Shown in pieces: positions 19,534 to 63,387 of a stretch of DNA of 64,000 nucleotides. The stretch lies in IMG/VR virus record IMGVR_UViG_3300017752_000002. The stretch is one strand, 5' to 3'. Under the pieces are notes generated by a model. The model was not told where the DNA came from. It ran no database searches and worked only from the letters and a program-made list of their open reading frames with translations. A program made the translations under genes and the position numbers. Within the stretch, counting starts at the first letter, position 1, and the number at the start of each line of letters is the position of its first letter. Origin of the DNA: a virus.

Positions 19534-20505
19534 ATGGCAAATCCAGCAACAAGAGACCAATTAAAAGATTACGCATTGCGAAGTCTAGGATCGCCAGTGA
19601 TTGAAATAAATGTAGCTGACGAACAGTTAGAAGATCGCTTAGACGAAGCGATAGAATATTTTAATATTAATCATTGGAATGGTACTGAACGAGCATATTT
19701 CCAACATGTAATAGTTGGCACCAAACTAACACTTACTGCTGCTGTCGCAGGAAATTTTACTGGAGGGGAAACTATTACTGGTGGAACCACAGGTGCTAAA
19801 GCAGTTGTACATAAAAGTTCAACTGGTTCTGATATATTCTATCAAGTATTAATTAATCCTGGACCAGACCAAGTAAAATTTCAGGGTGGCGAAACTATTA
19901 CTGGTGACCAATCTGGTGCTACAGCAATTATATCAACTATTACTAGAGGAGACTGCGAAAATGGATTTATTCCAGTCACTGATGAGATATTTGGTGTAAA
20001 TAAAGTTTTTACAGTTTTTTCTAATACTACAGATTCTAGAAATATATTCGACTTACAATATCAATTAAGATTAAATGATTTATACGACTTGACCTCTACA
20101 AGTATTGTTTACTACACTACTGTTATGGGTCATTTAAGTTTACTTGATTTAATGTTAAATGGTAAAACTTTGTATCGTTTTAACAGAATGCAAAATAAAC
20201 TATTTCTAGATGTTGACTTCCGAAGCGATGTAAAAATCGGAGACTCTGTGATGGTCGATGTTTATAAAGCATTAAGTGGTACAGAATATCCAAAAGTATT
20301 TGGCGAACCATGGTTGAAAAAATATACTGCTGCTCTGTTTAAGAAACAGTGGGGACTTAATCTTAAAAAGTTTTCGGGACTAGTTTTACCTGGAGGTGTT
20401 TCAATGGATGGCGATGGTATATATAACGAAGCCATGAACGAACTACAACAACTAGAAGACGAACTCGTAGGAAAAGGTGCACCACTAGAGTTCTTTACAG
20501 GGTAA
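19534..20505 (+). CDS. gp13: Neck protein gp13
   Basis: LKDYALRSLGSPVIEINV and WGLNLKKF...LPGGVSMDG motifs; synteny with gp14/gp15. Confidence 0.92.
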   Translation: MANPATRDQLKDYALRSLGSPVIEINVADEQLEDRLDEAIEYFNINHWNGTERAYFQHVIVGTKLTLTAAVAGNFTGGETITGGTTGAKAVVHKSSTGSDIFYQVLINPGPDQVKFQGGETITGDQSGATAIISTITRGDCENGFIPVTDEIFGVNKVFTVFSNTTDSRNIFDLQYQLRLNDLYDLTSTSIVYYTTVMGHLSLLDLMLNGKTLYRFNRMQNKLFLDVDFRSDVKIGDSVMVDVYKALSGTEYPKVFGEPWLKKYTAALFKKQWGLNLKKFSGLVLPGGVSMDGDGIYNEAMNELQQLEDELVGKGAPLEFFTG

Positions 20506-36617: not shown

Positions 36618-37101
36618 TCAAAAATTAATTAGGGAAGATGACGAGTTCATTATTCTTAAGCTAACCACAGGGGAAACTCTAGTGGCTACTATCAGAGCAG
36701 ACGCACCTGAAACTATATCTGTACAATATCCCTTTGAATTAAAAACTATTCATGAAAGAAGGCAAGATATGGTAGTAGATGTCACTGCTGCTGCACCATT
36801 CTGTGGTTTCGCAGAAGATAGGAACTTCACATTTAAAAAAGAAGATATTATGTTTACTAAAGTCCTTCATAATTTTTCAGTTCCATTTTATATAGAATTA
36901 GTCGAAGAGTATGAAAAACTCATCGATGTACCAGTACCAAAGAAAAGATTATCTGAAACTCAAGATGTATTACGCAAAACTGCCGAAACTATGAGACAAC
37001 GCAGTGAAGAGATCTTGGGCGAAGACAGACTAGAGGATACAGCAGAAGTGCTTGATTATCTTCTAGGCAACATCGGCAAATCAAAGAAAACAATCCATTG
37101 A
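36607..37101 (+). CDS. Hypothetical protein (Sm-like N-terminus)
   Basis: IILKLTTGETLVA pattern; overlaps uvsW end. Confidence 0.6.
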   Translation: MLDNQKLIREDDEFIILKLTTGETLVATIRADAPETISVQYPFELKTIHERRQDMVVDVTAAAPFCGFAEDRNFTFKKEDIMFTKVLHNFSVPFYIELVEEYEKLIDVPVPKKRLSETQDVLRKTAETMRQRSEEILGEDRLEDTAEVLDYLLGNIGKSKKTIH

Positions 37102-37403
37102 TAAGCATAACTCCAAAAGCTAAACAATACATACAAATCAAACTCAAAGCGAGTGGGAATAAGTACGCACGACTTGCCCTCGATGGTGGAGGTTGTGCTG
37201 GGTTTACTTATAAGTGGGAAGAAACAAACGAAGTCGCCGATGGCACCCTTATTGAAGATACGATTATAGTGGATAAATTAGCAGAGTTATATGTTATGGG
37301 ATCTGAGATTGATTATAAAGAAGATTTCGCAGGATCGCATATCGAGATTATAAATCCGAATGCTACTGGAAGTTGTGGATGTGGAGAATCAGTTGGATTC
37401 TAA
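37098..37403 (+). CDS. iscA: IscA/HesB-family A-type Fe-S carrier protein
   Basis: GGGCAGFTY, GSEIDY, NPNATGSCGCGES signature with three Cys. Confidence 0.92.
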   Translation: MISITPKAKQYIQIKLKASGNKYARLALDGGGCAGFTYKWEETNEVADGTLIEDTIIVDKLAELYVMGSEIDYKEDFAGSHIEIINPNATGSCGCGESVGF

Positions 37404-37538: not shown

Positions 37539-38090
37539 ATGGCAGTCTCAAAAAAGAAGCCCCAACATTATGTTGATAATAAACAGTTTCTACAAGCACT
37601 AAAAGATTATAAAGATGCTTGTGCTAAGGCGAGCAAAAAGAAACAAGATAAACCTAGAATCCCAGAGTATATTGGTGAATGCTTATTGAAGATTGGTACA
37701 CACCTTTCTTACAAACCTAACTTCATCAACTATACCTATCGGGATGATATGATACTGGATGGTGTTGAAAACTGTATTCAATACATACATAACTTCGACC
37801 CTGATAAATCTGGTAATCCATTTTCATACTTTACGCAAATTATTTTCTATGCTTTTTTACGAAGAATTAAAAAAGAAAAGAAACAAACTTATGTGAAGCA
37901 GAAACTAATTGCTGAGATGGATGTTGATGCGTTCATGGAAGCAGGTGAAGATAGCGAAGGTACTAACCAATATATTGAGTATATGAAAAAGAACCAAGTC
38001 CTTGACCCTTACTTTGAAGCCAAAGAGAAAAAGAAGAAAGAAAAAAAGTCCACACCCATCTCTGATGCGTTGGACGATGTAAATGAGTAA
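37539..38090 (+). CDS. gp55: Late-transcription sigma factor gp55
   Basis: HYVDNKQF, YIGECLLKI, NFINYTYRDDMI, NPFSYFTQIIFYAFLRRI. Confidence 0.96.
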   Translation: MAVSKKKPQHYVDNKQFLQALKDYKDACAKASKKKQDKPRIPEYIGECLLKIGTHLSYKPNFINYTYRDDMILDGVENCIQYIHNFDPDKSGNPFSYFTQIIFYAFLRRIKKEKKQTYVKQKLIAEMDVDAFMEAGEDSEGTNQYIEYMKKNQVLDPYFEAKEKKKKEKKSTPISDALDDVNE

Positions 38091-40871: not shown

Positions 40872-41051
40872 ATGAACGCACAAGCACATCTAATGGAACA
40901 ATATAATAGAGTTAATTACGAACATAATGAAATACATGAAGAAGTTGAAAAGCATCGATTTGACTCTGAAAAACTCAAACAACTAAAACTTACCAAACTA
41001 AAACTAAAAGATAAACTTACTAATCTGGAGAAAAAACTAGGAATCTCATAA
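40872..41051 (+). CDS. Small coiled-coil protein (DUF465/YdcH-like, 59 aa)
   Basis: Own translation MNAQAHLMEQYNRVNYEHNEIHEEVEK...LKQLKLTKLKLKDKL; GGAG RBS. Confidence 0.65.
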   Translation: MNAQAHLMEQYNRVNYEHNEIHEEVEKHRFDSEKLKQLKLTKLKLKDKLTNLEKKLGIS

Positions 41052-41617
41052 TGAATGTACTTGATGATGCAAAAGGTGAATTAATACCATACAACGATCC
41101 ATTACTAACTTCCCCACAAGACGAGTGGAACTTTGATGAAAATCCACAAGAGGAAGCAGCAAAACTTGGATTGTTATTAATTGAGACTTCTAGAAAATTA
41201 CAGGGTGCAGGATTATCAGCCAATCAAATAGGATTACCATATAAAGTATTCGCATTGACTGCTGAGGAACAAATGGACTTACCAGCTATGGCTATATTCA
41301 ACCCTGAGATATTAGAATCTTCAGAAGAAGTTAGTATAATGACTGAGGGATGTTTATCTAGACCCAACCTTTGGCTCATGGTTTCTCGACCTAGACTTAT
41401 CAAAGTGAAATACCAAACATTTAAAGGCGAAGAAATCAGGACTACATTATCTGGTTATGTCTCTCGTGTGTTCCAACATGAGTATGACCATATGCTAGGA
41501 ATAGATTTCACGCAAAGAGTATCTAAGATGAAACTCGATAGAGCCATTAAAAAGATGAAAAAAGACGCAAAAAGTGGTCGTACAACCCAAGTAATTAGAG
41601 GTAATTTCAACCAATAG
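41051..41617 (+). CDS. def: Peptide deformylase
   Basis: GAGLSANQIG, EGCLS, QHEYDH motifs. Confidence 0.95.
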   Translation: MNVLDDAKGELIPYNDPLLTSPQDEWNFDENPQEEAAKLGLLLIETSRKLQGAGLSANQIGLPYKVFALTAEEQMDLPAMAIFNPEILESSEEVSIMTEGCLSRPNLWLMVSRPRLIKVKYQTFKGEEIRTTLSGYVSRVFQHEYDHMLGIDFTQRVSKMKLDRAIKKMKKDAKSGRTTQVIRGNFNQ

Positions 41618-44644: not shown

Positions 44645-45465
44645 GAATTTTAATCAGTGACAACCACAGTAAAGAAGATATTCTTAACTGTATGAAAAGT
44701 TGTCAAGGATATCCTATATGGGTACACGCGAACACCAATGATACTAATTGGGCAGATAGGATGAAGATTGCTTGTGAAGAAACAGGTTGTCATTATTTTT
44801 CTAGCACTAGAAGTAATGGTAATCCAGGATTTGGTAAAAACTTGATGATGAGAAACTTTGGTATGGATACTAATTTAAGATTCTTTAGTTATTGCTTTCT
44901 AATAGATGGCGATGACGCATGGGGATCTACACTGCCTGAGTTATTCAAAAGGAAGTACGATGGCGACTTCTTATTCTCATCAGGTGGCAAGTATAAGTGG
45001 AAAGATGAGATATATGAAAAGGTTGAACTGGCTCAGCTGAGCGAACAAATAAGAAAGGATATGGGGGATAAGTACGATAAGCCAACATCCTATATATCTG
45101 AGTGGTTGGATTTAAGAGAGTTATTACAGAAATTTTATCAGCATCCTAATAATGAGCATGGCACATTAAATAGATTGATAGGATTTCATAAGGGTTCAAT
45201 CTATAAATTACAGTTTAAAGAAGATATTAAAATAGCTGAAGACCTAATTTTTCATATTGAAGCATTGATGGCTGACAAAAGAAAAGAGTTTAAGATACAA
45301 TATTTACATGATGATGACTTATACTTATATCAACCAAATGAAAGAGGAATACATTATTACTCTTTTTCTAGACCAAAAGAAAACTGGTTAGCGAGAGTAA
45401 GAGCATATCTACCAAAGGCATATCCTAAAAGTTTGAAAAAATATAAAGTGGACTGGATAAAATGA
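44614..45465 (+). CDS. GT-A-like glycosyltransferase
   Basis: SNGNPGFGKN, FLIDGDD (DxD), IAEDLIF; start likely the ATG at 44614. Confidence 0.6.
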   Translation: MSYSGYTAVIGILISDNHSKEDILNCMKSCQGYPIWVHANTNDTNWADRMKIACEETGCHYFSSTRSNGNPGFGKNLMMRNFGMDTNLRFFSYCFLIDGDDAWGSTLPELFKRKYDGDFLFSSGGKYKWKDEIYEKVELAQLSEQIRKDMGDKYDKPTSYISEWLDLRELLQKFYQHPNNEHGTLNRLIGFHKGSIYKLQFKEDIKIAEDLIFHIEALMADKRKEFKIQYLHDDDLYLYQPNERGIHYYSFSRPKENWLARVRAYLPKAYPKSLKKYKVDWIK

Positions 45466-46115
45466 CATATATCGTTCCTAAAAAAGTTTATTACATACAT
45501 ATCCCCAAAGCTGGTGGTACGACTGAGAAGTACAAACTGAAGGAACTATATGGTAATGATATGAAAGAAGTGACCACAGGAAAGCATAGTCCTTATGATA
45601 AACAGTATGCTGATTATGATTGTATATATACACATGTAAGGAATCCGCATGATAGATTATTGTCAATTTATTTGTTTTGGTTTGAACTTAAATTTATGCC
45701 ACAAAAACATATTACTGATAAAAGAATAGACTTTATGCAATATGAACACAAACAAAGAATATCGCAAAATTTTGGACATTATATGGGTGGGATGTCAAAG
45801 TTTGATACTATGCTTTACAATAAGATAACTCCACTTATTCAAGATAATAATCCTGAAAATTATTACAAGTGGTTAGATACTGTAGGAAAAGCAAATGATG
45901 AAATGGATTGTTTCTTTGAATATCGACCATGGCTTCAACAACATTTATGGTTGGCTGATAATGTATTCGTAAAGAAGATTGAAGATGAAGGTGGCGAAAA
46001 ATTAAATATTACCAGCAGAATGCCAGAACATGATGATAATGATTACTTACAAATAGGCAAACCACTAATAGAAAAATATTACAAAGAAGACTTAGAAAGG
46101 TTCGGATATGAATAG
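45462..46115 (+). CDS. Sulfotransferase family protein
   Basis: YIHIPKAGGTT (5'-PSB) and VRNPHDRLLSIY (3'-PB). Confidence 0.85.
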   Translation: MTYIVPKKVYYIHIPKAGGTTEKYKLKELYGNDMKEVTTGKHSPYDKQYADYDCIYTHVRNPHDRLLSIYLFWFELKFMPQKHITDKRIDFMQYEHKQRISQNFGHYMGGMSKFDTMLYNKITPLIQDNNPENYYKWLDTVGKANDEMDCFFEYRPWLQQHLWLADNVFVKKIEDEGGEKLNITSRMPEHDDNDYLQIGKPLIEKYYKEDLERFGYE

Positions 46116-48410: not shown

Positions 48411-48704
48411 ATGAAAAATAAAAATCCTAATATTGATTATAAATTTGATGAAGATAAACTTATTGAAGACTTCAAAGAATATATTGATAAAACTTACATG
48501 GGGCACTACAGTAAAAACTCATTTCAAGCAAGTGAATTTATTATTGATTGTGGTCATGGTATGGGATTTTTTATGGGTAATGTATTGAAGTATGCCCAAA
48601 GGTATGGCAAGAAAGATGGTTATAATCGTGCCGATATTTTAAAAATACTTCACTATGCATTGATGGCTTTACATCAACATGATAAAATTAACAAGGAGAA
48701 ATAA
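48411..48704 (+). CDS. Conserved T4-like hypothetical protein (DUF3310-like)
   Basis: YIDKTYMGHYS, GFFMGNVLKYAQRYGKKDG, DILKILHYA motifs. Confidence 0.75.
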   Translation: MKNKNPNIDYKFDEDKLIEDFKEYIDKTYMGHYSKNSFQASEFIIDCGHGMGFFMGNVLKYAQRYGKKDGYNRADILKILHYALMALHQHDKINKEK

Positions 48705-48708
48705 TATT

Positions 48709-49374
48709 ATGAAAATTTCGAAAGAAACTTTGAGTGTCCTTAAGAACTTTGCCACTATTAATGGCAATATTCTTATTAAAGCTGGTAATCGTTTATCGAC
48801 TATATCAGCACAAAAAAATGTTATGGCTAGTACTACTGTCCAAGAAAACTTTGATGGTGAGTTTGGTATCTATGACTTAAATGAGTTTTTGGGTGTGTAT
48901 TCTTTATTTGATGCAGATCCTGAACTTGCCTTTGATGAAAAGTTTGTCACTGTAGCAAATGGTAAATCTAAAGTAAAATATTTTGCTGCCGATCCATCAG
49001 TTCTAGCATCGCCAACTAAAGATGCTCTTCCTGTTGATGCAGATATTGAATTCGACTTATCAAAAACTATGTATGATATGATTATGAAAACATCTTCAGT
49101 ATTGAGATCTGGTGATGTATCATTCATTGGTGATGGTTCGAATGTTAGTGTAGTTGTAGCTGATAAAAAGAATGCTACTTCTAACTCTTGGGATGCTACT
49201 TTGGGCACAACTGATAAAGTGTTTAAAGTAAATTTCAGGATTGATAATTTCAAAATGCTAGATGGGGATTATGTAGTTTCTATTTCTAAGAAAAGAATCT
49301 CTAAGTTTGCTTCTAAGATGAATGACTTGACTTACTTCATCGCAGTTGAAGCTGACTCTACTTTTGACTTTTAA
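48709..49374 (+). CDS. gp45: Sliding clamp gp45
   Basis: MKISKETLSVLKNFATIN, FGIYDLNEFL, YFIAVE. Confidence 0.95.
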   Translation: MKISKETLSVLKNFATINGNILIKAGNRLSTISAQKNVMASTTVQENFDGEFGIYDLNEFLGVYSLFDADPELAFDEKFVTVANGKSKVKYFAADPSVLASPTKDALPVDADIEFDLSKTMYDMIMKTSSVLRSGDVSFIGDGSNVSVVVADKKNATSNSWDATLGTTDKVFKVNFRIDNFKMLDGDYVVSISKKRISKFASKMNDLTYFIAVEADSTFDF

Positions 49375-49395: not shown

Positions 49396-50334
49396 ATGGA
49401 TGACCAATTTATTTGGGTCGAGAAATACAGACCTAAGACTATTGAGGAGTGTGTCCTTCCTGACAGTTTAAGGGATACATTCAAAGAGTTTGTTGCTAGT
49501 GGGCAACTGCCGAACTTCCTGTTCTGTGGTACTGCTGGTGTCGGTAAAACTACTGTCGCCAAAGCACTATGCAACGAAGTCGGTGCTGAGTATCTGTTCA
49601 TTAATGGTTCCGAAGAATCTGGCATTGATGTGATACGAACAAAAATCAAAAACTTTGCTTCGTCGGTTTCCCTGACTGACTCAAAGAAAATCGTTATTCT
49701 TGATGAAGCTGATTATTTGAATCCGAACAGTACTCAGCCAGCACTGAGAGCATTTATCGAAGAGTTCTCTGGGAACTGCCGATTTATATTTACCTGTAAT
49801 TTTAAGAATAGGATTATTGAGCCACTTCACTCTAGATGTGCTGTGGTTGAGTTTAGGACTGATGCTAAGGATAAACCAGCAGTTGCTACAGCTTTCTATA
49901 AAAGAGTGGAGCATATTCTTAATACTGAGGGTGTGGACTTTGAGCAAAAAGCAGTTGTAGAAATTATACAAAAACATTATCCTGACTTCCGAAGGGTGCT
50001 GAACGAACTTCAAAGATATTCAGTATCTGGTAAGATAGATAGTGGCATTATGATTAATGTCAGTGAAGAGTCCTGGAATAATCTCTTTACACTTCTAAAG
50101 GATAAGAACTTCAAAGAGGTTCGTAAATGGGTCACTAAAAATAGTGATATTGAAACAACCCAATTATTTTCTGATATATTTAATAATGCTAATAACAAAC
50201 TAGAATCTGCTTCAGTTCCACAAATGGTTCTGATTCTCGCAGATTATCAGTATAAAGCAGCATTTGTCGCTGACCATGAACTTAATAAAATGGCAGCACT
50301 TACAGAGATAATGGCTTCCTGTAAGTTTAAATAA
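49396..50334 (+). CDS. gp44: Clamp loader large subunit gp44
   Basis: WVEKYRP, GTAGVGKTT, ILDEAD, PLHSRC. Confidence 0.96.
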   Translation: MDDQFIWVEKYRPKTIEECVLPDSLRDTFKEFVASGQLPNFLFCGTAGVGKTTVAKALCNEVGAEYLFINGSEESGIDVIRTKIKNFASSVSLTDSKKIVILDEADYLNPNSTQPALRAFIEEFSGNCRFIFTCNFKNRIIEPLHSRCAVVEFRTDAKDKPAVATAFYKRVEHILNTEGVDFEQKAVVEIIQKHYPDFRRVLNELQRYSVSGKIDSGIMINVSEESWNNLFTLLKDKNFKEVRKWVTKNSDIETTQLFSDIFNNANNKLESASVPQMVLILADYQYKAAFVADHELNKMAALTEIMASCKFK

Positions 50335-50717
50335 TGGCAAACCCTTTCCTTTATATTAACAACATAACTAACGACAAGAAGGATCTATTCCAGGATAATC
50401 CTCTTGCCGATAAGGATTATGTACCCTTTATTATTAATAGAGGTTTGAGTTATTTCCCTGACACAATAATGCAGTCCAACATGATGAACCAATATCATGA
50501 TATCCCGAAGTCTTGGCAATACTATTTTTTACTAAATACTATTACAAAAGGCAAAAGGTTCTCGAAGTGGCATAAAAATGAGAAGCAAACCGAGTCTTTG
50601 AAACTGGTTATGGAATATTATGGATATTCTCCAGAAAAGGCTCGTCAGGTGATGGATATATTAACAACTGACCAGATGAGCATTATTGAACAAAAACTAA
50701 ATAAAGGTGGTAAATAG
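50334..50717 (+). CDS. gp62: Clamp loader small subunit gp62
   Basis: YVPFIINRGLSYF, KGKRFSKW, VMEYYGYS. Confidence 0.92.
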   Translation: MANPFLYINNITNDKKDLFQDNPLADKDYVPFIINRGLSYFPDTIMQSNMMNQYHDIPKSWQYYFLLNTITKGKRFSKWHKNEKQTESLKLVMEYYGYSPEKARQVMDILTTDQMSIIEQKLNKGGK

Positions 50718-52399: not shown

Positions 52400-52509
52400 A
52401 ATAATTTATATAAAGGACTTGAAATTTTTGTAATGATACCTATATATAATGTAGAGAGAATGCCATAATGGGTTCTCGTAAATTAAACTCGCTTCATAAG
52501 GAGGAAAAT

Positions 52510-52935
52510 ATGACGCATTATAATCTATGGAGGGACAGCAGACTTGCTCCCTTTTCAATCGGCTTCGACAATTTATTCGATACATTCGATAGAGTCGGAG
52601 AAATCCACAAACAAGAAACTTATCCACCATACAATATCAAAAGACTCAGCGATGAGAAGTTTGCTATTGAAATGGCTGTGGCTGGGTTTTCTAAAAAAGA
52701 TATTACAGTTGAACATCAGGAGAACACTTTGACTATTAAGTCGGTGCCTTCTGAAGAAACAACTGAAGAAGAATATGTACATAGAGGTATCTCTAAGAGA
52801 AACTTTGCTCGTACATTTACAGTTGCTGATGATGTTATAGTCAAAGGTGGCACTCTAAAAGATGGAATGCTTTCCGTCGAACTCGAAAGGATTATTCCTG
52901 AAGAGAAGAAACTTAAAGTCATCGACATTAAGTAA
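52510..52935 (+). CDS. hsp20: Small heat-shock protein Hsp20
   Basis: YPPYNI, IEMAVAGF, YVHRGISKRNF, LKDGML; GGAGG RBS before ATG 52510. Confidence 0.95.
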   Translation: MTHYNLWRDSRLAPFSIGFDNLFDTFDRVGEIHKQETYPPYNIKRLSDEKFAIEMAVAGFSKKDITVEHQENTLTIKSVPSEETTEEEYVHRGISKRNFARTFTVADDVIVKGGTLKDGMLSVELERIIPEEKKLKVIDIK

Positions 52936-53344: not shown

Positions 53345-55828
53345 ATGAAGTTTTATACAAATGTTCATCCCCATGGTAATCAGCTTCTAGTCAGATATAT
53401 TTCTGGCACGAAGCGAAAAGCCGAGAAGATACCTTTCAAACCCAGTGTATGGGTCACAAAAGGTAAAGGCGAAACACCATACAAAACTCTTAAAGGGCAT
53501 CCTGCTTATAAAATCCAACAAGGATCTATAAAGGATGCTAAAGACTTTGTACACCGATACAATGATGTTATGGAAGTACATGGTCAAACTCAGTGGCATT
53601 ACCAATATATGCATGATGAGTTTAAGGATGATATTGAATGGGATAAAGAACTTATTAAGATTTGGTCAATAGATATTGAGACTGAAACTGAAGAAGGATT
53701 CCCTAATATTGAACGAGCCAACGAGAAACTTCTACTAATTACTTTACAAGATAATCATTCAAAAGAGATTATTACTTTCGGCACTAAAGAATATACAGGT
53801 GACGAAAAGCAACATAATAACTGGCGATATGTATATTGTCGTGATGAAAAGATTTTATTTCACAAGTTCCTAGATTACTGGATTGAAAATTATCCTGATG
53901 TAATTACAGGTTGGAACTCTCAGTTTTTTGACCTCGCATATTTATGGCGAAGAATGTGTCATGTAATTGGCGAAGACCATGCTCGTAGATTGTCTCCTTG
54001 GAAAATTGTACATGAACGAGAGATATTCGTAAAAGGTAATAAAGAGTTCGCCATAGCAATCGCAGGTATTGCTCAACTTGATTATCTTGACCTCTATAAA
54101 AAATATACTTACACAGCACAAGAATCTTATCGTCTAGATAATATTGCCTTCGTTGAACTTGGTCAAAAGAAACTTGACCATAGTGAGTACGCAACATTCT
54201 CAGAGTTCTATAGAAATGATTGGAATAAATTTGTTGATTATAATGTTATTGATACAGTATTAGTTGACAGGCTAGAAGATAAAATGAAGCTGATTGAACT
54301 TCAGCTTACTATGGCATATAATGCTAAGATTAATTATGATGATGTATTTTCTCAGGTTCGTATGTGGGATATGATTGTTCACAATTATCTGATGAAAGTA
54401 AATGTGGTAATACCACCGAAATCTAATGAAGATAAAAAGACTAAGTTTGAAGGAGCATTCGTAAAAGAGCCATTGATTGGTTTACATAAATGGGTTGCTT
54501 CATTTGACTTGAACTCGCTGTATCCCCATTTAATTATGCAATATAATATATCTCCCGAAACTCTACAACCTGAGTCTGTAGAAAAAGGAGTTGAGCATTA
54601 TCTTAAAAACCCTGCCATAGATTCGGAGTTTGCTGTTGCTGCCAATGGCTCTCAATATAGAAAAGATTTCAGAGGTGTATTCCCTAGTATTATGGAAGAC
54701 TTCTATAATCAAAGGAAGATCGCTAAGAAAGAGATGCTTCAAGCACAGCAATTATATGAGGATGAGAAAGATACTCGTCAGCTAAAAGTTATATCAAGTA
54801 AGAATAATTATCAGATGGGTTTGAAGATTGCTCTTAACTCAGCTTATGGTGCACTTGGTAATCAATACTTCAGATACTTTAATTTAAAAATGGCTGAAGC
54901 TATTACTACTTCTGGTCAATTATCTATTCGTTGGATACACGATAGAATGAATGAATATCTCAACAAGATAATCGGTACAGAAAACGAAGATTATATTATC
55001 GCTGTTGATACAGATTCTATATATGTGACATTCGAAAAACTTGTAGATAAAGTTATGGGAGATAAACAATCTGACATAAATAAAACCATCAAGTTCCTAG
55101 ACACTATATGTAATGATAAATTTATGCCATATATAAATGAACAATATTCTGAACTGGCTAATAGGCAAAATGCCTTTGCTAACAAGATGGTTATGGAAAG
55201 AGAAGTTCTAGCTGATAAAGGTTTATGGACTGCGAAAAAAAGGTATGTTCTTTCAGTGTATAATTCTGAAGGTGTGTCCTATAAAAAACCTAAGATGAAA
55301 ATTATGGGACTAGAGATGATTAAATCTTCTACTCCCTATGCTGTTCGTGAACTTCTAAAGGGTGTGATACCAGTTATCCTACATGGTGATAATAATGAAC
55401 TCTTCAAATATATTGAAGAGACTAGAAACTATTTCAACTCTTTACCTATTGAAGAGATTTCCTTCCCTAGATCTGTAAATGGTCTCAGCAACTATAAAGA
55501 TTCTATGAGCATATATAGGAAAGCAACTCCTATTCATGTCAGAGGTGCTTTACTTTATAATCATTATTTGAAAGAAAAGAACATAGACCTAAGATACAAT
55601 GATATTAAAGAGGGTGAGAAAATTAAATTCGTTTACTTGAAAAAACCTAATGTCATCAGGGAGAATGTTATATCCTTCCTAGATGTTGTTCCTAAAGAGT
55701 TCGGCATACATGATTATGCTGATTATGACTTGATGTTTGAAAAGGTATTCTTAGATCCAGTCGATATCATGATACAATCACTTGGATGGAAAGTAAAGCA
55801 AACAGCCAGTCTTGAGGATTTCTTTTAA
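53345..55828 (+). CDS. gp43: Family B DNA polymerase gp43
   Basis: DIET exonuclease, FDLNSLYP, KIALNSAYG, DTDS; C-terminal SLEDFF. Confidence 0.98.
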   Translation: MKFYTNVHPHGNQLLVRYISGTKRKAEKIPFKPSVWVTKGKGETPYKTLKGHPAYKIQQGSIKDAKDFVHRYNDVMEVHGQTQWHYQYMHDEFKDDIEWDKELIKIWSIDIETETEEGFPNIERANEKLLLITLQDNHSKEIITFGTKEYTGDEKQHNNWRYVYCRDEKILFHKFLDYWIENYPDVITGWNSQFFDLAYLWRRMCHVIGEDHARRLSPWKIVHEREIFVKGNKEFAIAIAGIAQLDYLDLYKKYTYTAQESYRLDNIAFVELGQKKLDHSEYATFSEFYRNDWNKFVDYNVIDTVLVDRLEDKMKLIELQLTMAYNAKINYDDVFSQVRMWDMIVHNYLMKVNVVIPPKSNEDKKTKFEGAFVKEPLIGLHKWVASFDLNSLYPHLIMQYNISPETLQPESVEKGVEHYLKNPAIDSEFAVAANGSQYRKDFRGVFPSIMEDFYNQRKIAKKEMLQAQQLYEDEKDTRQLKVISSKNNYQMGLKIALNSAYGALGNQYFRYFNLKMAEAITTSGQLSIRWIHDRMNEYLNKIIGTENEDYIIAVDTDSIYVTFEKLVDKVMGDKQSDINKTIKFLDTICNDKFMPYINEQYSELANRQNAFANKMVMEREVLADKGLWTAKKRYVLSVYNSEGVSYKKPKMKIMGLEMIKSSTPYAVRELLKGVIPVILHGDNNELFKYIEETRNYFNSLPIEEISFPRSVNGLSNYKDSMSIYRKATPIHVRGALLYNHYLKEKNIDLRYNDIKEGEKIKFVYLKKPNVIRENVISFLDVVPKEFGIHDYADYDLMFEKVFLDPVDIMIQSLGWKVKQTASLEDFF

Positions 55829-58366: not shown

Positions 58367-58395
58367 TTGACATTTAACTTTTTTACAGGTAGAAT
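58367..58395 (+). promoter_or_regulatory. Sigma70-type promoter (gp41)
   Basis: TTGACA-17-TAGAAT, 6 nt before ATG. Confidence 0.8.
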
Positions 58396-58401
58396 CTAAC
58401 T

Positions 58402-59793
58402 ATGCGTATTGAAGACACTATATTAAATAATCTTATTCATAATGATGAGTACTGCCGAAAAGTAGTACCATTTATTAAAGCTGAATATTTCCAAGATAGA
58501 ACTGAAAAGATAATATTTGAAGAGTTTGATAAACTGTTCTTACAGTACAACAACATTCCTAATCCTGATATGATTGCTTCTGAAGTTTTTGAACGAAAAG
58601 ATTTATTTGAAAACGAGCATGCTCTTATTCAGGAAAAAATACAGCAGATGTCTGAGCCAAAATCTATTAATGATAATTGGCTATATGATAAAACTGAGGA
58701 ATGGTGTAAAGAACGAGCAGTACATAATACTATTATGGACTCTATCAAAATTATCGATGGTCGTGATAAAGTACATACCAAAGATGCGATTCCTAAAATG
58801 ATGCAGGATGCTTTGGGTGTTTGCTTTGATGACTCTGTCGGTCATGATTATCTTGAAGATGCTGATGATAGATTTCAATTTTATCATAAGATTGAAGAAA
58901 AAATTAAATTTGATATTGATTTATTGAATACTATTACTCGTGGTGGTTTGAGTAAAAAAACTCTTAACATCGCCATGGCTGGTACTGGTGTTGGTAAATC
59001 TTTGTTTATGTGTCATCATGCATCTAGTGTATTGAACGAGGGTATGAATGTTCTTTATGTCACTATGGAGATGGCTGAAGAAAAGATATCTGAAAGGATT
59101 GACGCAAACTTATTGAACTTGGGTATGGATGAAATTAAAGTTGTTGACCATGATATATTCAGTAAGAGAATTAATAAAGTAAAAGAAAACAGTAAAGGTA
59201 AACTGATTGTAAAAGAATATCCTACAGGTGCTGCTCATGCAGGTCACTTCAGAGCATTACTTGAAGAACTTAAAATGAAAAAAGGTTTCAAAGCAGATAT
59301 TATATTTATCGATTATCTAAATATCTGTGCTTCGCAAAGACTAAGGATGGGTGCCAATGTAAATACTTATTCTTATATCAAATCTATTGCTGAAGAACTA
59401 AGAGGTCTGGCAGTTGAATATAACTGTCCTATCGTATCAGCTACTCAAACTACAAGAGGTGGATATAATAATACTGATGTTGGTCTTGAAGATACTTCGG
59501 AGTCTTTCGGTTTACCAGCTACTGCCGATCTAATGTTTGCGATTATTGCTAGTGAAGAACTGGATAATATGGGACAATGGATGATTAAACAACTTAAAAA
59601 CAGATATTCAGATCCTAACTATTATAAGAGATTTGTAGTTGGGGTTGATAAAAACAAGATGAGATTGTACAATGTTGAAGAATCTGCCCAAAGTAATATA
59701 ATGGATAGTGGGCAGGAAGAAAAAGATATCGGAGCAGTATTTGATAAAACCGATGCAGGTGAACGATTAAGTATGGAAGGATTTAAGGTATGA
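58402..59793 (+). CDS. gp41: Replicative helicase gp41
   Basis: AGTGVGKS, IDYLNI, SATQTTR, SESFGLPATAD, KQLKNRY. Confidence 0.97.
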   Translation: MRIEDTILNNLIHNDEYCRKVVPFIKAEYFQDRTEKIIFEEFDKLFLQYNNIPNPDMIASEVFERKDLFENEHALIQEKIQQMSEPKSINDNWLYDKTEEWCKERAVHNTIMDSIKIIDGRDKVHTKDAIPKMMQDALGVCFDDSVGHDYLEDADDRFQFYHKIEEKIKFDIDLLNTITRGGLSKKTLNIAMAGTGVGKSLFMCHHASSVLNEGMNVLYVTMEMAEEKISERIDANLLNLGMDEIKVVDHDIFSKRINKVKENSKGKLIVKEYPTGAAHAGHFRALLEELKMKKGFKADIIFIDYLNICASQRLRMGANVNTYSYIKSIAEELRGLAVEYNCPIVSATQTTRGGYNNTDVGLEDTSESFGLPATADLMFAIIASEELDNMGQWMIKQLKNRYSDPNYYKRFVVGVDKNKMRLYNVEESAQSNIMDSGQEEKDIGAVFDKTDAGERLSMEGFKV

Positions 59794-61091
59794 CAAAAAC
59801 AATAACAGCACCTAAGAAATTTGACTGTGAAAATATATTGGGTAGATTTGGTGACGAAAGTCATTATGAGTTGTTAGTTGATTATGATTGTGATTTTTAT
59901 GCTCCTACACCTATGGGTGAGGAAAACTCTGAAGAAAATATTATATTCAAGTTTAGAAAGAACTTCTTTTCTCAAGAACAACAAGACGAAGCATATAAAG
60001 GACTTCGTGAAGCAGCAGGTGCCACTGAAAATCGTGGACTCGCAGCAGGTATAGAAAAAACCAAATCGCTTGGCTCTAGAGATTGGGTCACTAATTACCA
60101 TGAAGAATTATTGGCATATTTTCAAAACCCATCTACAACACTAGATGGTTCTGACCCAGTAGAAAATATTAAAGCTAAGTGGAAAGGTAGAGAGAATATT
60201 GCTGATGACAGTAGAGGTAATGTATGGTTGGCTCTTAAAGTTGCTGAGGAAGCATTTGAGTTTGAAGCATGGGTTGAAGAGATAAGGTTATTACCCAAAG
60301 ATGAAATGGTAGCTGAAGCGAATAGAGTTAGAGATAAACTTACATCTACAACTTCTTATGCTAATCAGGTTTTCTCAGGTATCGCAGGTTATTTTGACAG
60401 ATATCCTCGTATTCCTTTTGGTCGTCCTACAACTTACACTCGTGATAATTATGATAAGTTTGAGATGGCACTTCCTTTCTTACAACAACTTAGTAAAGGA
60501 TTTGAAGATCTATTACCTGTCAGATATGGTAAGCAGAATGAAGCATGTGGTAAATTAGATTCTAAGTTTATTATTCCAGGAACTGTATTTACTACTGCTA
60601 CTGTAAACAAAACTTTTAGAACAGCTTACCATAGAGATGCTGGTGATTTGAATGAAGGTTTTTCTAATCTTACTGTTGTATCTAATAATGGTAAATACTC
60701 AGGTGGTCATTTAATACTTCCTGAATATAAGGTTGCTGTAAACATTCGTCCTGGAGATTTATTACTAATTAATAATCATGACGGAATACATGGTAATACA
60801 CCTATGGTTATGGAATCTGATGATGCTGAAAGAATATCATTCGTGTGTTATTTTAGGGAAAAAATGTTAGAACTTGGATCTTGGGATTATGAAAGGGCAA
60901 GGGAAGATTATGTCACTGCTCGTAGAACTAATAAAGAACACCCTTTACAAAGAAAATTATGGAATGGTATCAGTCCTGGAATGTGGGATGAAAGTGAGTG
61001 GTACGATTTCTTAGAAAATAAATTAGGTATAGATGTATTGACTAAGTATCATCCCGACAGTCAGTCATCAAGTTTGGAGGAATTTTTCTAA
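59790..61091 (+). CDS. TET/JBP-family Fe(II)/2-oxoglutarate dioxygenase
   Basis: FTTATVNKTFRTAYHRDAGDL (HxD), GGHLILPEY, GDLLL..H..IHGNT (distal H), ERISFVCYFRE (2OG Arg). Confidence 0.88.
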   Translation: MTKTITAPKKFDCENILGRFGDESHYELLVDYDCDFYAPTPMGEENSEENIIFKFRKNFFSQEQQDEAYKGLREAAGATENRGLAAGIEKTKSLGSRDWVTNYHEELLAYFQNPSTTLDGSDPVENIKAKWKGRENIADDSRGNVWLALKVAEEAFEFEAWVEEIRLLPKDEMVAEANRVRDKLTSTTSYANQVFSGIAGYFDRYPRIPFGRPTTYTRDNYDKFEMALPFLQQLSKGFEDLLPVRYGKQNEACGKLDSKFIIPGTVFTTATVNKTFRTAYHRDAGDLNEGFSNLTVVSNNGKYSGGHLILPEYKVAVNIRPGDLLLINNHDGIHGNTPMVMESDDAERISFVCYFREKMLELGSWDYERAREDYVTARRTNKEHPLQRKLWNGISPGMWDESEWYDFLENKLGIDVLTKYHPDSQSSSLEEFF

Positions 61092-61915
61092 TGGACATTT
61101 TAAAAGATTATCAAATCTGTATCCCATCATATAAGCGACACGAAACTGTGATGAATAAAACCATCGAGGTATTAAAGTCATATAATATTGACCCAGCTAG
61201 GATTAAAGTATTCGTGAATGATGAGGAGCCAGGAGAGTATGACAATTATGTAGATACTTTATCTAAAACTGAATACACAAAAAATATTGAAGTCGTAAAA
61301 GGTGTACCAACTATTGGTAAGCAAAGAAACTTCATAGAGAAGTATTATCCTGAAGGAACTTATGTCATGTCTTTTGATGATGATATTGAAGAAGTACAAG
61401 TTAAGGATGGCGAGCAAAACTTACTGCGTGTTGAAGACTTTGAAAAAGAAGTTATACTTAGAGGTTTCCAAGCATGTGAAGATAACGATGCTAAGACTTT
61501 CGGTATATATGCAGCATCAAATGCGTACTTTATGAAGCATCGTACATATACGAAACTTTGTTATATTATCGCTAGTATGTATGGATTTATAGCTGACCAC
61601 GATCCTGAATTAGATCGTCATACTAATCATGGTGAAGATTATGAGTATAGTATGCGTCAATATAGAAAACATGGTGTTGTCGTAAGACTTGATGATATTA
61701 CTGTAAAATCTAATTACTATAAAGAGGTTGGTGGCTTACAAACATTTAGAACTGCTGAAAATATTAAGTCAAGTATTGAGTGGATTGCTGAGAACTTTGA
61801 CGATTTATGTACGATGTATATTCGTAAGACTACTGGGCATGCTGAATTAAAATTGCGTGATACATCTGGTGGTAAATATGATAAAAATTTAAGCACATTA
61901 GAAGGTTTCTTTTGA
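61091..61915 (+). CDS. TET-associated GT-A glycosyltransferase (TAGT/GREB1-like)
   Basis: ICIPSYKR, KQRNFI, MSFDDDI, GEDYE, GGLQ motifs; start overlaps the TET stop. Confidence 0.82.
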   Translation: MDILKDYQICIPSYKRHETVMNKTIEVLKSYNIDPARIKVFVNDEEPGEYDNYVDTLSKTEYTKNIEVVKGVPTIGKQRNFIEKYYPEGTYVMSFDDDIEEVQVKDGEQNLLRVEDFEKEVILRGFQACEDNDAKTFGIYAASNAYFMKHRTYTKLCYIIASMYGFIADHDPELDRHTNHGEDYEYSMRQYRKHGVVVRLDDITVKSNYYKEVGGLQTFRTAENIKSSIEWIAENFDDLCTMYIRKTTGHAELKLRDTSGGKYDKNLSTLEGFF

Positions 61916-62043
61916 ACGAATTAAAACCATTTATCTTAGGTATAGCAATAGCAATGTTATTTGTTGGTCTTATAATATGGATAAGTCCATATGGTGGTCA
62001 GCATGAGCCATTAGATATATTAATTAGAATCTATCAACAATGA
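61912..62043 (+). CDS. Small membrane protein (TTG start, 43 aa)
   Basis: LNELKPFILGIAIAMLFVGLIIWISPYGGQHEPLDILIRIYQQ; overlaps both neighbours by 4 nt. Confidence 0.5.
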   Translation: MNELKPFILGIAIAMLFVGLIIWISPYGGQHEPLDILIRIYQQ

Positions 62044-62459
62044 GAACTGGTATAACTGCTTCAACTTTCGACCTGCTTCATGCTGGTCATGTACAAATGT
62101 TAAGGGATGCCAAATCTCAATGCGATTATTTAATAGCATGTTTACAGATAGATCCTAGTATAGATAGAAAAGATAAAAATGCTCCAATACAAACTGTCGT
62201 TGAAAGATACACACAATTAAAAGCAGTAAAATATGTTGATGAGATTATACCATATTCAAGCGAAAAAGATTTAGAAGATATCTTAGAATTATATGAGATT
62301 GATGTTAGAATACTAGGCGAGGAATATAGAGAAAAAGATTTTACTGGTAAGGATATATGTAAGAGAAGAGATATAGAATTATATTTTAATAAGAGGGAAC
62401 ATAGGTTTTCCTCCACAGATTTGAGAGAAAGGGTGAGTGAGCAATGGTCTGGAAAGTAG
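62040..62459 (+). CDS. Cytidylyltransferase (TagD/glycerol-3-phosphate CT-like)
   Basis: STFDLLHAGH (HxGH), ER...LKAVKYVDEI, FSSTDLR. Confidence 0.9.
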   Translation: MRTGITASTFDLLHAGHVQMLRDAKSQCDYLIACLQIDPSIDRKDKNAPIQTVVERYTQLKAVKYVDEIIPYSSEKDLEDILELYEIDVRILGEEYREKDFTGKDICKRRDIELYFNKREHRFSSTDLRERVSEQWSGK

Positions 62460-62758
62460 CAAAGAAAGACGAAAGATATACTGTATTAGATTATGAAGGA
62501 TTGAATGTTCTCGTACCTTCTCTCACAATTTTACAACCTGGATGTGAAACTAATGGTCATGTACACAGTGACCCACAACAGGAAGAAGTTTATGTATTTA
62601 CAACTGGCACTGGACTCATGGAAGTTGAAGATGAAACGATCTCTGTAAAAGCTGGAGACATCATCCCAGTGCCAGCCAATAAATTTCATAAAGTCTATAA
62701 TAATGATGTAGTGCCATTACACTTTGCTGCTGTATTCAATGGTGCTAGATATGAGTAA
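62444..62758 (+). CDS. Cupin-domain protein
   Basis: HVH....EEVY..TGTG...V..E...VKAGDII.VP...FH motif. Confidence 0.88.
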   Translation: MVWKVAKKDERYTVLDYEGLNVLVPSLTILQPGCETNGHVHSDPQQEEVYVFTTGTGLMEVEDETISVKAGDIIPVPANKFHKVYNNDVVPLHFAAVFNGARYE

Positions 62759-62780
62759 ACCCAACCTTTTCCCAATATCA

Positions 62781-62787
62781 CTAAATA
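62781..62787 (+). promoter_or_regulatory. Late promoter CTAAATA
   Basis: Intergenic, 6 nt before ATG 62794. Confidence 0.6.
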
Positions 62788-62793
62788 GTTGAT

Positions 62794-63342
62794 ATGGCAA
62801 AGTGGTATAGAGATAAAGCAATAATCAATGTCAGAGGTGGAGATGCCGAGACTAGAAAACTTGTTCGCTCTATCGCCCACTGGGTTTCTCGAAAAACTAT
62901 GGATGTTCGACTCCGAACATCTGTCACTGTAAATATCGTAATACAAAAAAACTTATATCTTAAGGAAAAAGTCCAAGGATTATCTTGGATTGACGATGAA
63001 GCATATCGTCCTAAGAAATTTAAGATACAGGTTGAAAAGGAATCTAGACTAAGACCTTTGCTAGAAACTATTGCCCATGAAATGATACATGTTAAGCAAT
63101 GGGCATCTGGTGAAATGTATGAATATTCTGATGGCTTTAGGACTCGTTATAGAAAGCAAGGGTTTAACACTAAAAAGTTAGATTATTGGGATGCTCCTTG
63201 GGAAGTAGAAGCACATGGTAAAGAGGTTGGTCTATTCGTAAGATGGGCAGAAGAAGAAGGATATAACAAACTTCCTTGGGCACAAATTGACTTCCTAAAA
63301 CCTGAGTATGCTAAGAAAATAAAAAAACAATTAAAATCGTAA
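62794..63342 (+). CDS. HExxH zinc metallopeptidase-like protein
   Basis: TIAHEMIHVKQW and YWDAPWEVEA motifs. Confidence 0.8.
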   Translation: MAKWYRDKAIINVRGGDAETRKLVRSIAHWVSRKTMDVRLRTSVTVNIVIQKNLYLKEKVQGLSWIDDEAYRPKKFKIQVEKESRLRPLLETIAHEMIHVKQWASGEMYEYSDGFRTRYRKQGFNTKKLDYWDAPWEVEAHGKEVGLFVRWAEEEGYNKLPWAQIDFLKPEYAKKIKKQLKS

Positions 63343-63349
63343 AAAGTCC

Positions 63350-63382
63350 TTTACTTTTGTTCAAATTTAAGTAGAATAAATA
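63350..63382 (+). promoter_or_regulatory. Overlapping sigma70-type (TTTACT-16-TAGAAT) and late-type (ATAAATA) promoter
   Basis: Intergenic before ATG 63388. Confidence 0.55.
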
Positions 63383-63387
63383 GTGTT

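Follow-up and report, generated by a model that had tools for sequence, protein, structure and literature searches.

The DNA described here is a stretch of 64,000 nucleotides from the IMG/VR virus record IMGVR_UViG_3300017752_000002 (the window), which is assigned to a T4-like myovirus and carries all of its genes on the + strand. Directly behind the gene of the replicative helicase gp41, the window encodes a 5-methylpyrimidine dioxygenase (5mYOX) of the Tet_JBP family and a TET-associated glycosyltransferase (TAGT), which together form a candidate module for DNA base hypermodification. The locus contains the following features.

58367-58395, + strand: sigma-70-like promoter TTGACA-17-TAGAAT with 11/12 matches, ahead of gp41.
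58402-59793, + strand: gp41 replicative helicase (DnaB_C), the stop codon of which overlaps the start of the dioxygenase gene.
59790-61091, + strand: 5mYOX of the Tet_JBP family, 433 residues, identified by Pfam, PHROG, Foldseek and alignment to TET2.
60630-60638, + strand: HxD of the iron-binding facial triad, H281/D283 (TAYHRDAGDL), aligned to the HRD motif of TET2.
60789-60791, + strand: distal iron-binding histidine H334 (IHGNT), aligned to the distal histidine of TET2.
60831-60833, + strand: 2-oxoglutarate-binding arginine R348 (ERIS), aligned to the arginine of TRISLV in TET2.
61091-61915, + strand: TAGT with a GT-A fold, 274 residues, the proposed glycosyltransferase of 5-hydroxymethyluracil (5hmU) in DNA.
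61376-61384, + strand: DDD (DxD) motif for binding of metal and nucleoside diphosphate sugar, D96-D98 (FDDDI), invariant in the alignment.

The original prediction, made from the nucleotide sequence without database searches, had described the two open reading frames (ORFs), their characteristic motifs, the promoter ahead of the helicase and the translational coupling of the pair behind gp41, and all of these are present. The stop codon of gp41 and the start codon of the dioxygenase gene share ATGA (59790-59793), and the dioxygenase stop and TAGT start share TAATG (61089-61093). The three genes that follow the TAGT gene likewise overlap one another.

The dioxygenase matches the Tet_JBP profile PF12851 with 73.1 bits (E 2e-20, residues 212-357; Pfam cut-off 34.9) and belongs to PHROG 24024 (E 1.7e-161). 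A database search returned 2597 homologs. The residues H281, D283, H334 and R348 are invariant in an alignment of 18 homologs, and human TET2, whose catalytic residues are aligned with them, is the best PDB sequence match of the homolog profile. A Foldseek search with the AF2 model (pLDDT 63.7) places CcTet, NgTet1, TET2 and CMD1 at the top (E 5e-5 to 2e-2). The N-terminal part of about 200 residues is conserved, and a Pfam scan detects no other domain in the protein, including a J-binding domain. The labels "SNF2 DNA repair protein" and "queuine tRNA-ribosyltransferase", which some homologs carry in GenBank, are misannotations, as no profile supports them. One subgroup of dioxygenases (P0027, P0060, P0096, P0101 and P0120) has a cysteine-rich insert of 15-17 residues (CD...C...C..C) near residue 40, which could be a zinc-binding elaboration.

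The TAGT is covered by the Pfam profile PF20691 over its full length (45.6 bits, E 1e-11, match 7-215; cut-off 27.5) and matches phrog_842 with an E-value of 6e-13. It contains an IPSYKR motif and has 406 homologs in the database search. Its AF2 model has a pLDDT of 89.3 and resembles AvpGT, TarS, RmlT, TarP and GalNAc-T2 in Foldseek. A Tet_JBP gene adjoins the TAGT gene in the window and in all six sampled homolog contexts, four of which are T4-like contigs where the TAGT gene stands directly behind the Tet_JBP gene (4/4). Profiles, folds and gene context thus agree with the family assignments and with the base hypermodification module of an aquatic T4-like phage that had been proposed. Genes for a dCMP deaminase and a MazG/PRA-PH-like pyrophosphatase recur beside dioxygenase-TAGT pairs in T4-like contigs (locus L092, 3509-3934; locus L094, 7006-7455; in L094 and L095 immediately ahead of the dioxygenase gene) and also in phages DLP6 and Cr30. 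They may tune the pools of dTTP and dCTP for a thymine-based modification.

The base on which the module acts is indicated by the genes that accompany the dioxygenase and by those that are missing. We took + strand ORFs of at least 90 residues as genes and scanned them with Pfam. As the original prediction had stated, neither a C5-methyltransferase (PF00145) nor a dCMP hydroxymethylase is present among these ORFs of the window. PF00145 is also missing from about 30 kb further downstream in the same strain, which together with the window makes about 94 kb covered, from the complete genomes of Stenotrophomonas phage DLP6, Caulobacter phage Cr30 and Synechococcus phage S-CBWM1, all of which have homologs, and from five IMG/VR records that contain an ortholog, of which three are complete. 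The same five records contain no enzyme of the ThyA family (PF00303), and a hydroxymethylase that would act on dUMP or dCMP before replication is hence missing from them.

Marine phages of a large clade share the dioxygenase as a conserved core gene. We compared 80 IMG/VR loci with an orthologous dioxygenase (55-89% identical), in which the ortholog lies directly after gp41, in the same place as in the window. It is followed by genes for a GATase (43 loci), an amino-acid:DNA transferase (AADT, PF18724; 35 loci), a P-loop kinase (PF18751; 25 loci) and an amidoligase-like protein (21 loci). GATase, AADT and P-loop kinase belong to the machinery that builds thymidine hypermodifications on 5hmU (PMC8989533). 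In a maximum-likelihood tree, the window dioxygenase falls into a clade (support 100/99) with orthologs linked to kinase and AADT that are 82-89% identical to it, so that one dioxygenase lineage serves both kinds of cassette; the association with TAGT requires at least 4-5 independent changes on the tree. TAGTs that are 63-66% identical to that of the window are located in ParB-TET-TAGT clusters of non-T4 phages, and mycobacteriophage Acadian has the same arrangement. It matches a subclass shown experimentally to oxidise thymine in a ParB-dependent manner (PMC13229309). Because C5-methyltransferase and ThyA-type enzymes are lacking in the sequences scanned, orthologs serve 5hmU cassettes and close TAGTs stand in a ParB-TET-TAGT context, the thymine route is strongly favoured over one through 5-methylcytosine (5mC), with 5hmU as the likely intermediate and glycosyl-5hmU as the likely product. 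The protein encoded at 59790-61091 most likely hydroxylates thymine to 5hmU in the phage's own DNA, and the TAGT most likely places a sugar on the hydroxymethyl group of this 5hmU, to judge from their families and contexts.

The original prediction had left two routes open, of which the one from thymine to glycosyl-5hmU is supported. In the other, 5mC would come from a C5-methyltransferase of the host or of another part of the phage genome, and would then be converted to 5-hydroxymethylcytosine (5hmC) by the dioxygenase and to glycosyl-5hmC by the TAGT. The characterised phage TETs of clades A and B do act on 5mC beside a C5-methyltransferase (PMC8256090), PF20691 includes the T2/T6 enzyme that works on glucosyl-hmC, and the strain's genome is covered in part. 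Nevertheless, this cytosine route is very improbable, given the absence of PF00145 from the covered part of the strain's genome and from the complete genomes of six relatives, the 82-89% identical orthologs that feed 5hmU kinase/AADT cassettes, and the pairing of close TAGT homologs with enzymes of the ParB-linked thymine dioxygenase type. The earlier statement that characterised phage versions work with a C5-methyltransferase is outdated, as phage thymine dioxygenases were demonstrated in 2025-2026, and only then (PMC13229309). A tblastn search with the ParB-like protein of a relative found no ParB in the window, and ParB_N occurs in the cassettes of 5/80 relatives. A downstream protein of 401 residues was considered as a hidden ParB and rejected; it has no Pfam match.

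Both enzymes end in a short peptide that closely resembles the C-terminus of the phage's own DNA polymerase. This resemblance brings two replication proteins and two tails into the comparison.

53345-55828, + strand: gp43 family-B DNA polymerase, the last six residues of which (SLEDFF, 55808-55825) are the reference tail.
48679-49374, + strand: gp45 sliding clamp (gp45-slide_C and DNA_PPF profiles), the proposed docking partner.
61071-61088, + strand: C-terminal SLEEFF tail of the dioxygenase, proposed gp45-binding peptide; the pLDDT is low at residues 426-433.
61895-61912, + strand: C-terminal TLEGFF tail of the TAGT, proposed gp45-binding peptide.

The common pattern [ST]LExFF emerged from a listing of the C-termini of the window ORFs. 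Among approximately 1,200 ORFs of the related loci, the strict motif terminates 81/89 dioxygenases, 33/34 polymerases, 8/11 TAGTs and the single GT1 protein. It is found in none of 73 helicases, 51 UvsX proteins, 41 GATases and 26 kinases, nor in any other classified family of these loci, and the six unclassified ORFs that carry it (6/768) are all polymerase ends cut by contig edges. Database homologs have the tail in 118/120 dioxygenases and 102/120 TAGTs. In the complete 168-kb genome of a relative (G003), 3/225 ORFs possess it, one of which encodes a baseplate protein and the other two the polymerase and the dioxygenase. The baseplate protein (LESFF) and a window ORF at 19534-20505 (LEFFTG) are structural, their tails are not conserved, and we treat them as chance matches. 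The residues preceding the tail are variable, and they are predicted to be disordered in the models of both the dioxygenase and the TAGT.

The tails of the modifying enzymes co-vary with the polymerase tail across distant isolates. In Cr30, the polymerase ends in DLSSLFD, the TAGT-like glycosyltransferase in DLSKLF and the dioxygenase in ATLF. The corresponding ends are TLDSFFA, DLSSFFN and TLGDFFV in DLP6, and C48C1 has TLEDFFG in the polymerase and SLEEFFV in the dioxygenase. Where a T4-type replisome is missing (Acadian, S-CBWM1 and loci L113 and L114), neither enzyme has the tail, and this holds even for TAGTs that share 63-66% identity with that of the window. In phage T4, gp43 ends in KASLDFLFG and gp55 carries SLDFLY. 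T4 gp43, gp55 and gp33 bind gp45 through similar hydrophobic, acidic and interchangeable C-terminal epitopes (PMC2988020), and the T4 alpha-glucosyltransferase binds gp45 as well (PMC13216743). Since the tails copy that of the polymerase, and the T4 counterparts bind gp45, the comparison suggests that the dioxygenase and the TAGT are tethered to the gp45 clamp. The searched literature contains no link between a 5mYOX, or its tailoring enzymes, and a replicative clamp. When the complex of gp45 and residues 398-433 of the dioxygenase was predicted, the score was 0.10 relative to a mark of 0.34, and this value below the mark speaks neither for nor against docking.

It is also possible that the chemistry is as proposed and the tail serves as a handle for another component of the replisome or nucleoid, such as the clamp loader or the single-stranded DNA-binding protein, or as a signal for stability or localisation. 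The score of the gp45 complex leaves room for this alternative, which is in line with the LESFF end of the G003 baseplate protein and with a candidate for the gp55-like late sigma factor (37539-38090; weak Sigma70_r2 match, located before gp47 as in T4), which ends in DALDDVNE and lacks the tail, unlike T4 gp55. We nevertheless consider it unlikely, because the window tail is the counterpart of the T4 gp43 clamp epitope SLDFLFG in position and composition, tracks the version of the polymerase in divergent phages, and is lost exactly where a T4-type replisome is absent.

The TAGT gene is the first of four genes (61091-62758) that were not recognized as a unit in the original prediction, which had also not described the dioxygenase as a core gene of the clade or the polymerase tail on both enzymes. 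The remaining three genes and the right flank are the following.

61912-62043, + strand: single-pass membrane protein of 43 residues, found only with this cassette.
62040-62459, + strand: TagD/RfaE-domain-II-like nucleotidyltransferase (CTP_transf_like), 139 residues, proposed to make the activated donor.
62444-62758, + strand: Cupin_2 protein, 104 residues, weakly similar to the C-terminal cupin of mannose-6-phosphate isomerase.
62794-63342, + strand: conserved protein of 182 residues (phrog_10499, HExxH-like) in the right flank, outside the swappable cassette.

The nucleotidyltransferase scores about 70 bits with both the RfaE domain II (ADP-heptose) and the TagD (CDP-glycerol) models, which is under both equivalog cut-offs. 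The cupin is proposed to be a sugar-phosphate isomerase or epimerase. The window and the relatives L013, L014, L015 and L017 share 80-95% nucleotide homology through gp41 and the dioxygenase, which ends at 61093-61095 and restarts at 62780-62800. From this break and return, the TAGT, membrane protein, nucleotidyltransferase and cupin genes appear to have arrived as one swapped block. In those relatives, the slot holds an FkbM-type methyltransferase, an AADT, an inositol-1-phosphate-synthase-like protein and a kinase. The right flank (62780-63384) is 95% identical to L014 (13544-14148), whereas identity on the side of the dioxygenase is lower, at about 85%, which reads as a recombination mosaic around the cassette. 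There is no terminator-like site on the + strand between the promoter at 58367-58395 and position 62758, and the promoter likely drives gp41, the dioxygenase, the TAGT and the remaining cassette genes.

Cassettes of other phages offer comparisons. Acinetobacter phage Ab1-TPeters (L105, 4634-6198) has the same pair of cupin and nucleotidyltransferase, followed by a phosphomannomutase-like HAD protein, with no dioxygenase nearby; the trio looks like a sugar-activation module and is flanked by a Pol-beta-like protein and an actin-like ParM/Alp protein. The dioxygenase-linked cassette of S-CBWM1 consists of a TAGT, a phosphatase and a glucose-1-phosphate thymidylyltransferase. In C48C1, an isolate of the Kyanoviridae (L004, 7323-9355), the dioxygenase is followed by an unassigned protein of 344 residues and by a UDP-galactopyranose mutase (GLF, E 6e-52), which hints at a galactofuranose-type DNA decoration. 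The tie of the nucleotidyltransferase and cupin of the window to a DNA sugar is weaker, as it derives from their co-inheritance in the cassette.

The cassette could in principle have another target, if the TAGT, nucleotidyltransferase and cupin modified a teichoic-acid- or lipopolysaccharide-like envelope polymer or a protein, and the dioxygenase by itself left 5hmU or further oxidised bases in the DNA. The nearest solved folds of the TAGT are the wall-teichoic-acid glycosyltransferases TarS, TarP and RmlT, the nucleotidyltransferase resembles TagD and RfaE, and the cassette includes a small membrane protein. However, the TAGT scores above the Pfam cut-off, every sampled homolog of it adjoins a Tet_JBP gene, it bears a polymerase-type tail, and it occupies a slot that is held in relatives by the DNA-acting AADT and kinase enzymes. 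We therefore regard an envelope or protein target as highly unlikely.

We propose that a marine T4-like phage carries, as part of its replication operon, a module for post-replicative thymine hypermodification whose enzymes are delivered by the sliding clamp, a reading to which we assign a probability of about 0.65. In the first step, the Fe(II)/2-oxoglutarate dioxygenase would hydroxylate the methyl group at C5 of thymine in phage DNA to give 5hmU; we infer this step from the family of the enzyme, its orthologs and the absence of alternatives. In the second step, the TAGT would move a sugar from a nucleotide-activated donor to the hydroxyl of 5hmU, and the resulting base-J-like glycosyl-5hmU should shield the phage DNA from host nucleases. 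More tentatively, the nucleotidyltransferase and cupin (62040-62758) might make or adjust the donor, for which a manno-configured sugar, a heptose or glycerol phosphate are possible. Judging by sequence comparison, both writer enzymes probably ride on gp45 clamps left on new DNA and modify it behind the fork. The TAGT cassette would have replaced the kinase/amino-acid:DNA-transferase cassette of close relatives, with the dioxygenase fixed and the decoration swappable.

In a broader form, which we rate as an even chance, the sliding clamp is the delivery vehicle of hypermodification for a large clade of T4-like phages from the sea and from soil, whose dioxygenase and tailoring enzymes bear a portable clamp peptide of the polymerase. 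The tailoring enzymes concerned would be TAGT, GT1 and perhaps the AADT and GNAT proteins with looser tails. By analogy, gp45 may stand in for ParB, the CTP-dependent clamp of ParB-dependent thymine dioxygenases, and a tailoring gene may gain or lose the tail as it moves between T4-type and ParB-type phages.

Several points limit or weigh against the proposal of clamp-delivered thymine hypermodification. No sequence determinant that separates thymine from 5mC specificity was found, and with about 94 kb of the strain's genome covered, a non-canonical or distant cytosine methyltransferase may be located elsewhere. The confidence of the dioxygenase model is modest. The gp45 complex prediction adds no weight to docking, the gp55-like sigma factor candidate lacks the tail, and the ends of AADT (GLExF) and GNAT (SLEEFL) proteins in relatives bear only a loose resemblance to the motif. 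The nucleotidyltransferase is widespread among phages that have no dioxygenase, and four other sampled dioxygenase-TAGT pairs have neither the nucleotidyltransferase nor the cupin.

The module appears to work like the base J pathway and to belong to the recently defined group of phage thymine dioxygenases. The enzymes of that group described by O'Toole et al. 2026 (ParB-independent 5mYOX97 and ParB-dependent 5mYOX176; PMC13229309) are likewise Tet_JBP proteins that oxidise thymine post-replicatively without an adjacent C5-methyltransferase. They are linked to glycosyltransferases, GATases, P-loop kinases and AADTs, and the neighbourhoods of the orthologs described here match the published clade C1 (PMC13229309). 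Unlike these enzymes, the window dioxygenase has 433 residues with the conserved N-terminal part of about 200 residues, is a fixed core gene behind gp41, ends in a polymerase tail and has no ParB in its cassette. ParB-less members of clade C1 are inactive in Escherichia coli (PMC13229309), which could be explained by the need for a cognate clamp. Trypanosomatid base J is made by JBP1/2 and JGT in the same two steps as proposed here, from thymine to 5hmU on DNA and then by O-glycosylation. The base J pathway serves transcription control in eukaryotes, whereas the function of the window system is probably anti-restriction; its glycosyltransferase is a TAGT, and its dioxygenase has a putative clamp tail instead of a DNA-binding domain.

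Metavirome clusters of C5-methyltransferase, TET and glycosyltransferase (Burke 2021, PMC8256090; Pyle 2023, 10.1101/2023.12.21.572611) similarly combine a post-replicative 5mYOX with subsequent teichoic-acid-like GT-A transferases, and their sugars are diverse, including heptose (PMC8256090; 10.1101/2023.12.21.572611). These clusters make glycosylated 5hmC, whereas the window lacks the methyltransferase and its predicted acceptor is 5hmU. According to Pyle et al., most 5mYOX contigs have no methyltransferase and probably make 5hmU (10.1101/2023.12.21.572611). The machinery of thymidine hypermodification by 5-HMUDK kinase and AADT (Lee 2018/2021, PMC8989533) is the same as that behind close orthologs of the dioxygenase, and Lee et al. 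noted contigs with TET_JBP in place of dUMP hydroxymethylase beside it (PMC8989533). In contrast to those systems, the window cassette contains a TAGT, a nucleotidyltransferase and a cupin, and the decoration would be a sugar instead of an amino acid or amine.

The T4 clamp clients gp43, gp55, gp33 and alpha-glucosyltransferase (PMC2988020, PMC13216743) are the model for the tails: like gp43, gp55 and gp33, the window enzymes end in a peptide of hydrophobic and acidic character after a variable linker, and the polymerase tail of the window matches that of T4 gp43 in position and type. The T4 alpha-glucosyltransferase, however, ends in FDIITK and has no such peptide, whereas the tails of the window writers nearly duplicate that of the polymerase. 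The T2/T6 beta-glucosyl-HMC-alpha-glucosyltransferase has the GT-A architecture and belongs to the same family PF20691 (phrog_842). It extends the glucosyl-hmC of a pre-replicative pathway, whereas the window TAGT comes after a dioxygenase, and its direct acceptor is probably the hydroxymethyl group of 5hmU.

The first 29.7 kb of the window contain only structural genes (baseplate gp9/10, neck, gp15, terminase, sheath, tube and portal), followed by the prohead protease, scaffold and gp23. The block of replication and recombination genes comprises UvsY, UvsW, gp47/46, the gp45 clamp, the gp44/62 loader (49396-50717), RegA, gp43, UvsX and gp41. In its major capsid protein, the phage shares 66% identity with Methylophilales phage Melnitz and 64% with Pelagibacter phage HTVC008M and with cyanophages. 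The source is an uncultured marine phage. Public assemblies contain the exact dioxygenase protein in 110 indexed blocks, among them assemblies of Tara Oceans and other seawater metagenomes, on contigs of up to 150 kb; IMG/VR and INPHARED contain no contig nearly identical to the window.

The helicase gp41 has a conserved C-terminal motif of its own, F/M-x-G-F-K-F/V, which is MEGFKV in the window (59769-59790) and SFEGFKF, EFSGFKF or a similar sequence in relatives (L012-L091). Unlike the polymerase tail, it may be a handle for another partner in the replisome. Auxiliary genes amid the replication genes encode an IscA-like Fe-S assembly protein (37098-37403), a peptide deformylase (41051-41617), an HSP20 chaperone (52468-52935) and a weakly sulfotransferase-like protein (45462-46115). 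The genes for Fe-S and iron handling could be relevant to an iron-dependent dioxygenase. About 7 kb beyond the end of the window, the same strain encodes a DUF5824 protein of 1326 residues with a weak N-terminal cytidylyltransferase-like match (L006, 17126-21106; E 0.003), and a DUF6267 protein upstream of it keeps this position in relatives. About 25 kb downstream of the window end (L112, 10838-14835), a weak 2-oxoglutarate-Fe(II) oxygenase, an Asp/Arg-hydroxylase-like protein and an FkbM-type methyltransferase lie among ribonucleotide reductase genes; an FkbM methyltransferase is also part of the hypermodification cassette of relatives.

The locus is distinguished by a core-gene dioxygenase in a T4-like replication operon, a clean cassette swap, a cassette without ParB, and polymerase-type tails on both writers. 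In the searched literature, glycosyl-5hmU (base J) made by phages is predicted and not chemically shown, and the locus provides a compact two-gene unit for this prediction. A published digest of DLP6 DNA with 18 restriction enzymes is of no use as evidence of modification, because its result is garbled in the printed text. Its close relatives form a natural series in which one dioxygenase feeds different tailoring cassettes, which can serve the study of how hypermodifications diversify in the face of restriction and the development of enzymatic tools for DNA labelling. The shared tail is a possible mechanism by which post-replicative writers keep pace with a fast phage replisome, and a possible reason why some such enzymes fail in heterologous hosts. 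If true, clamp delivery would predict a near-complete, fork-coupled conversion of thymine to phage base J. Since the phage is abundant, as indicated by the 110 assembly blocks, the chemistry of its DNA would bear on the sequencing and reading of marine viromes.

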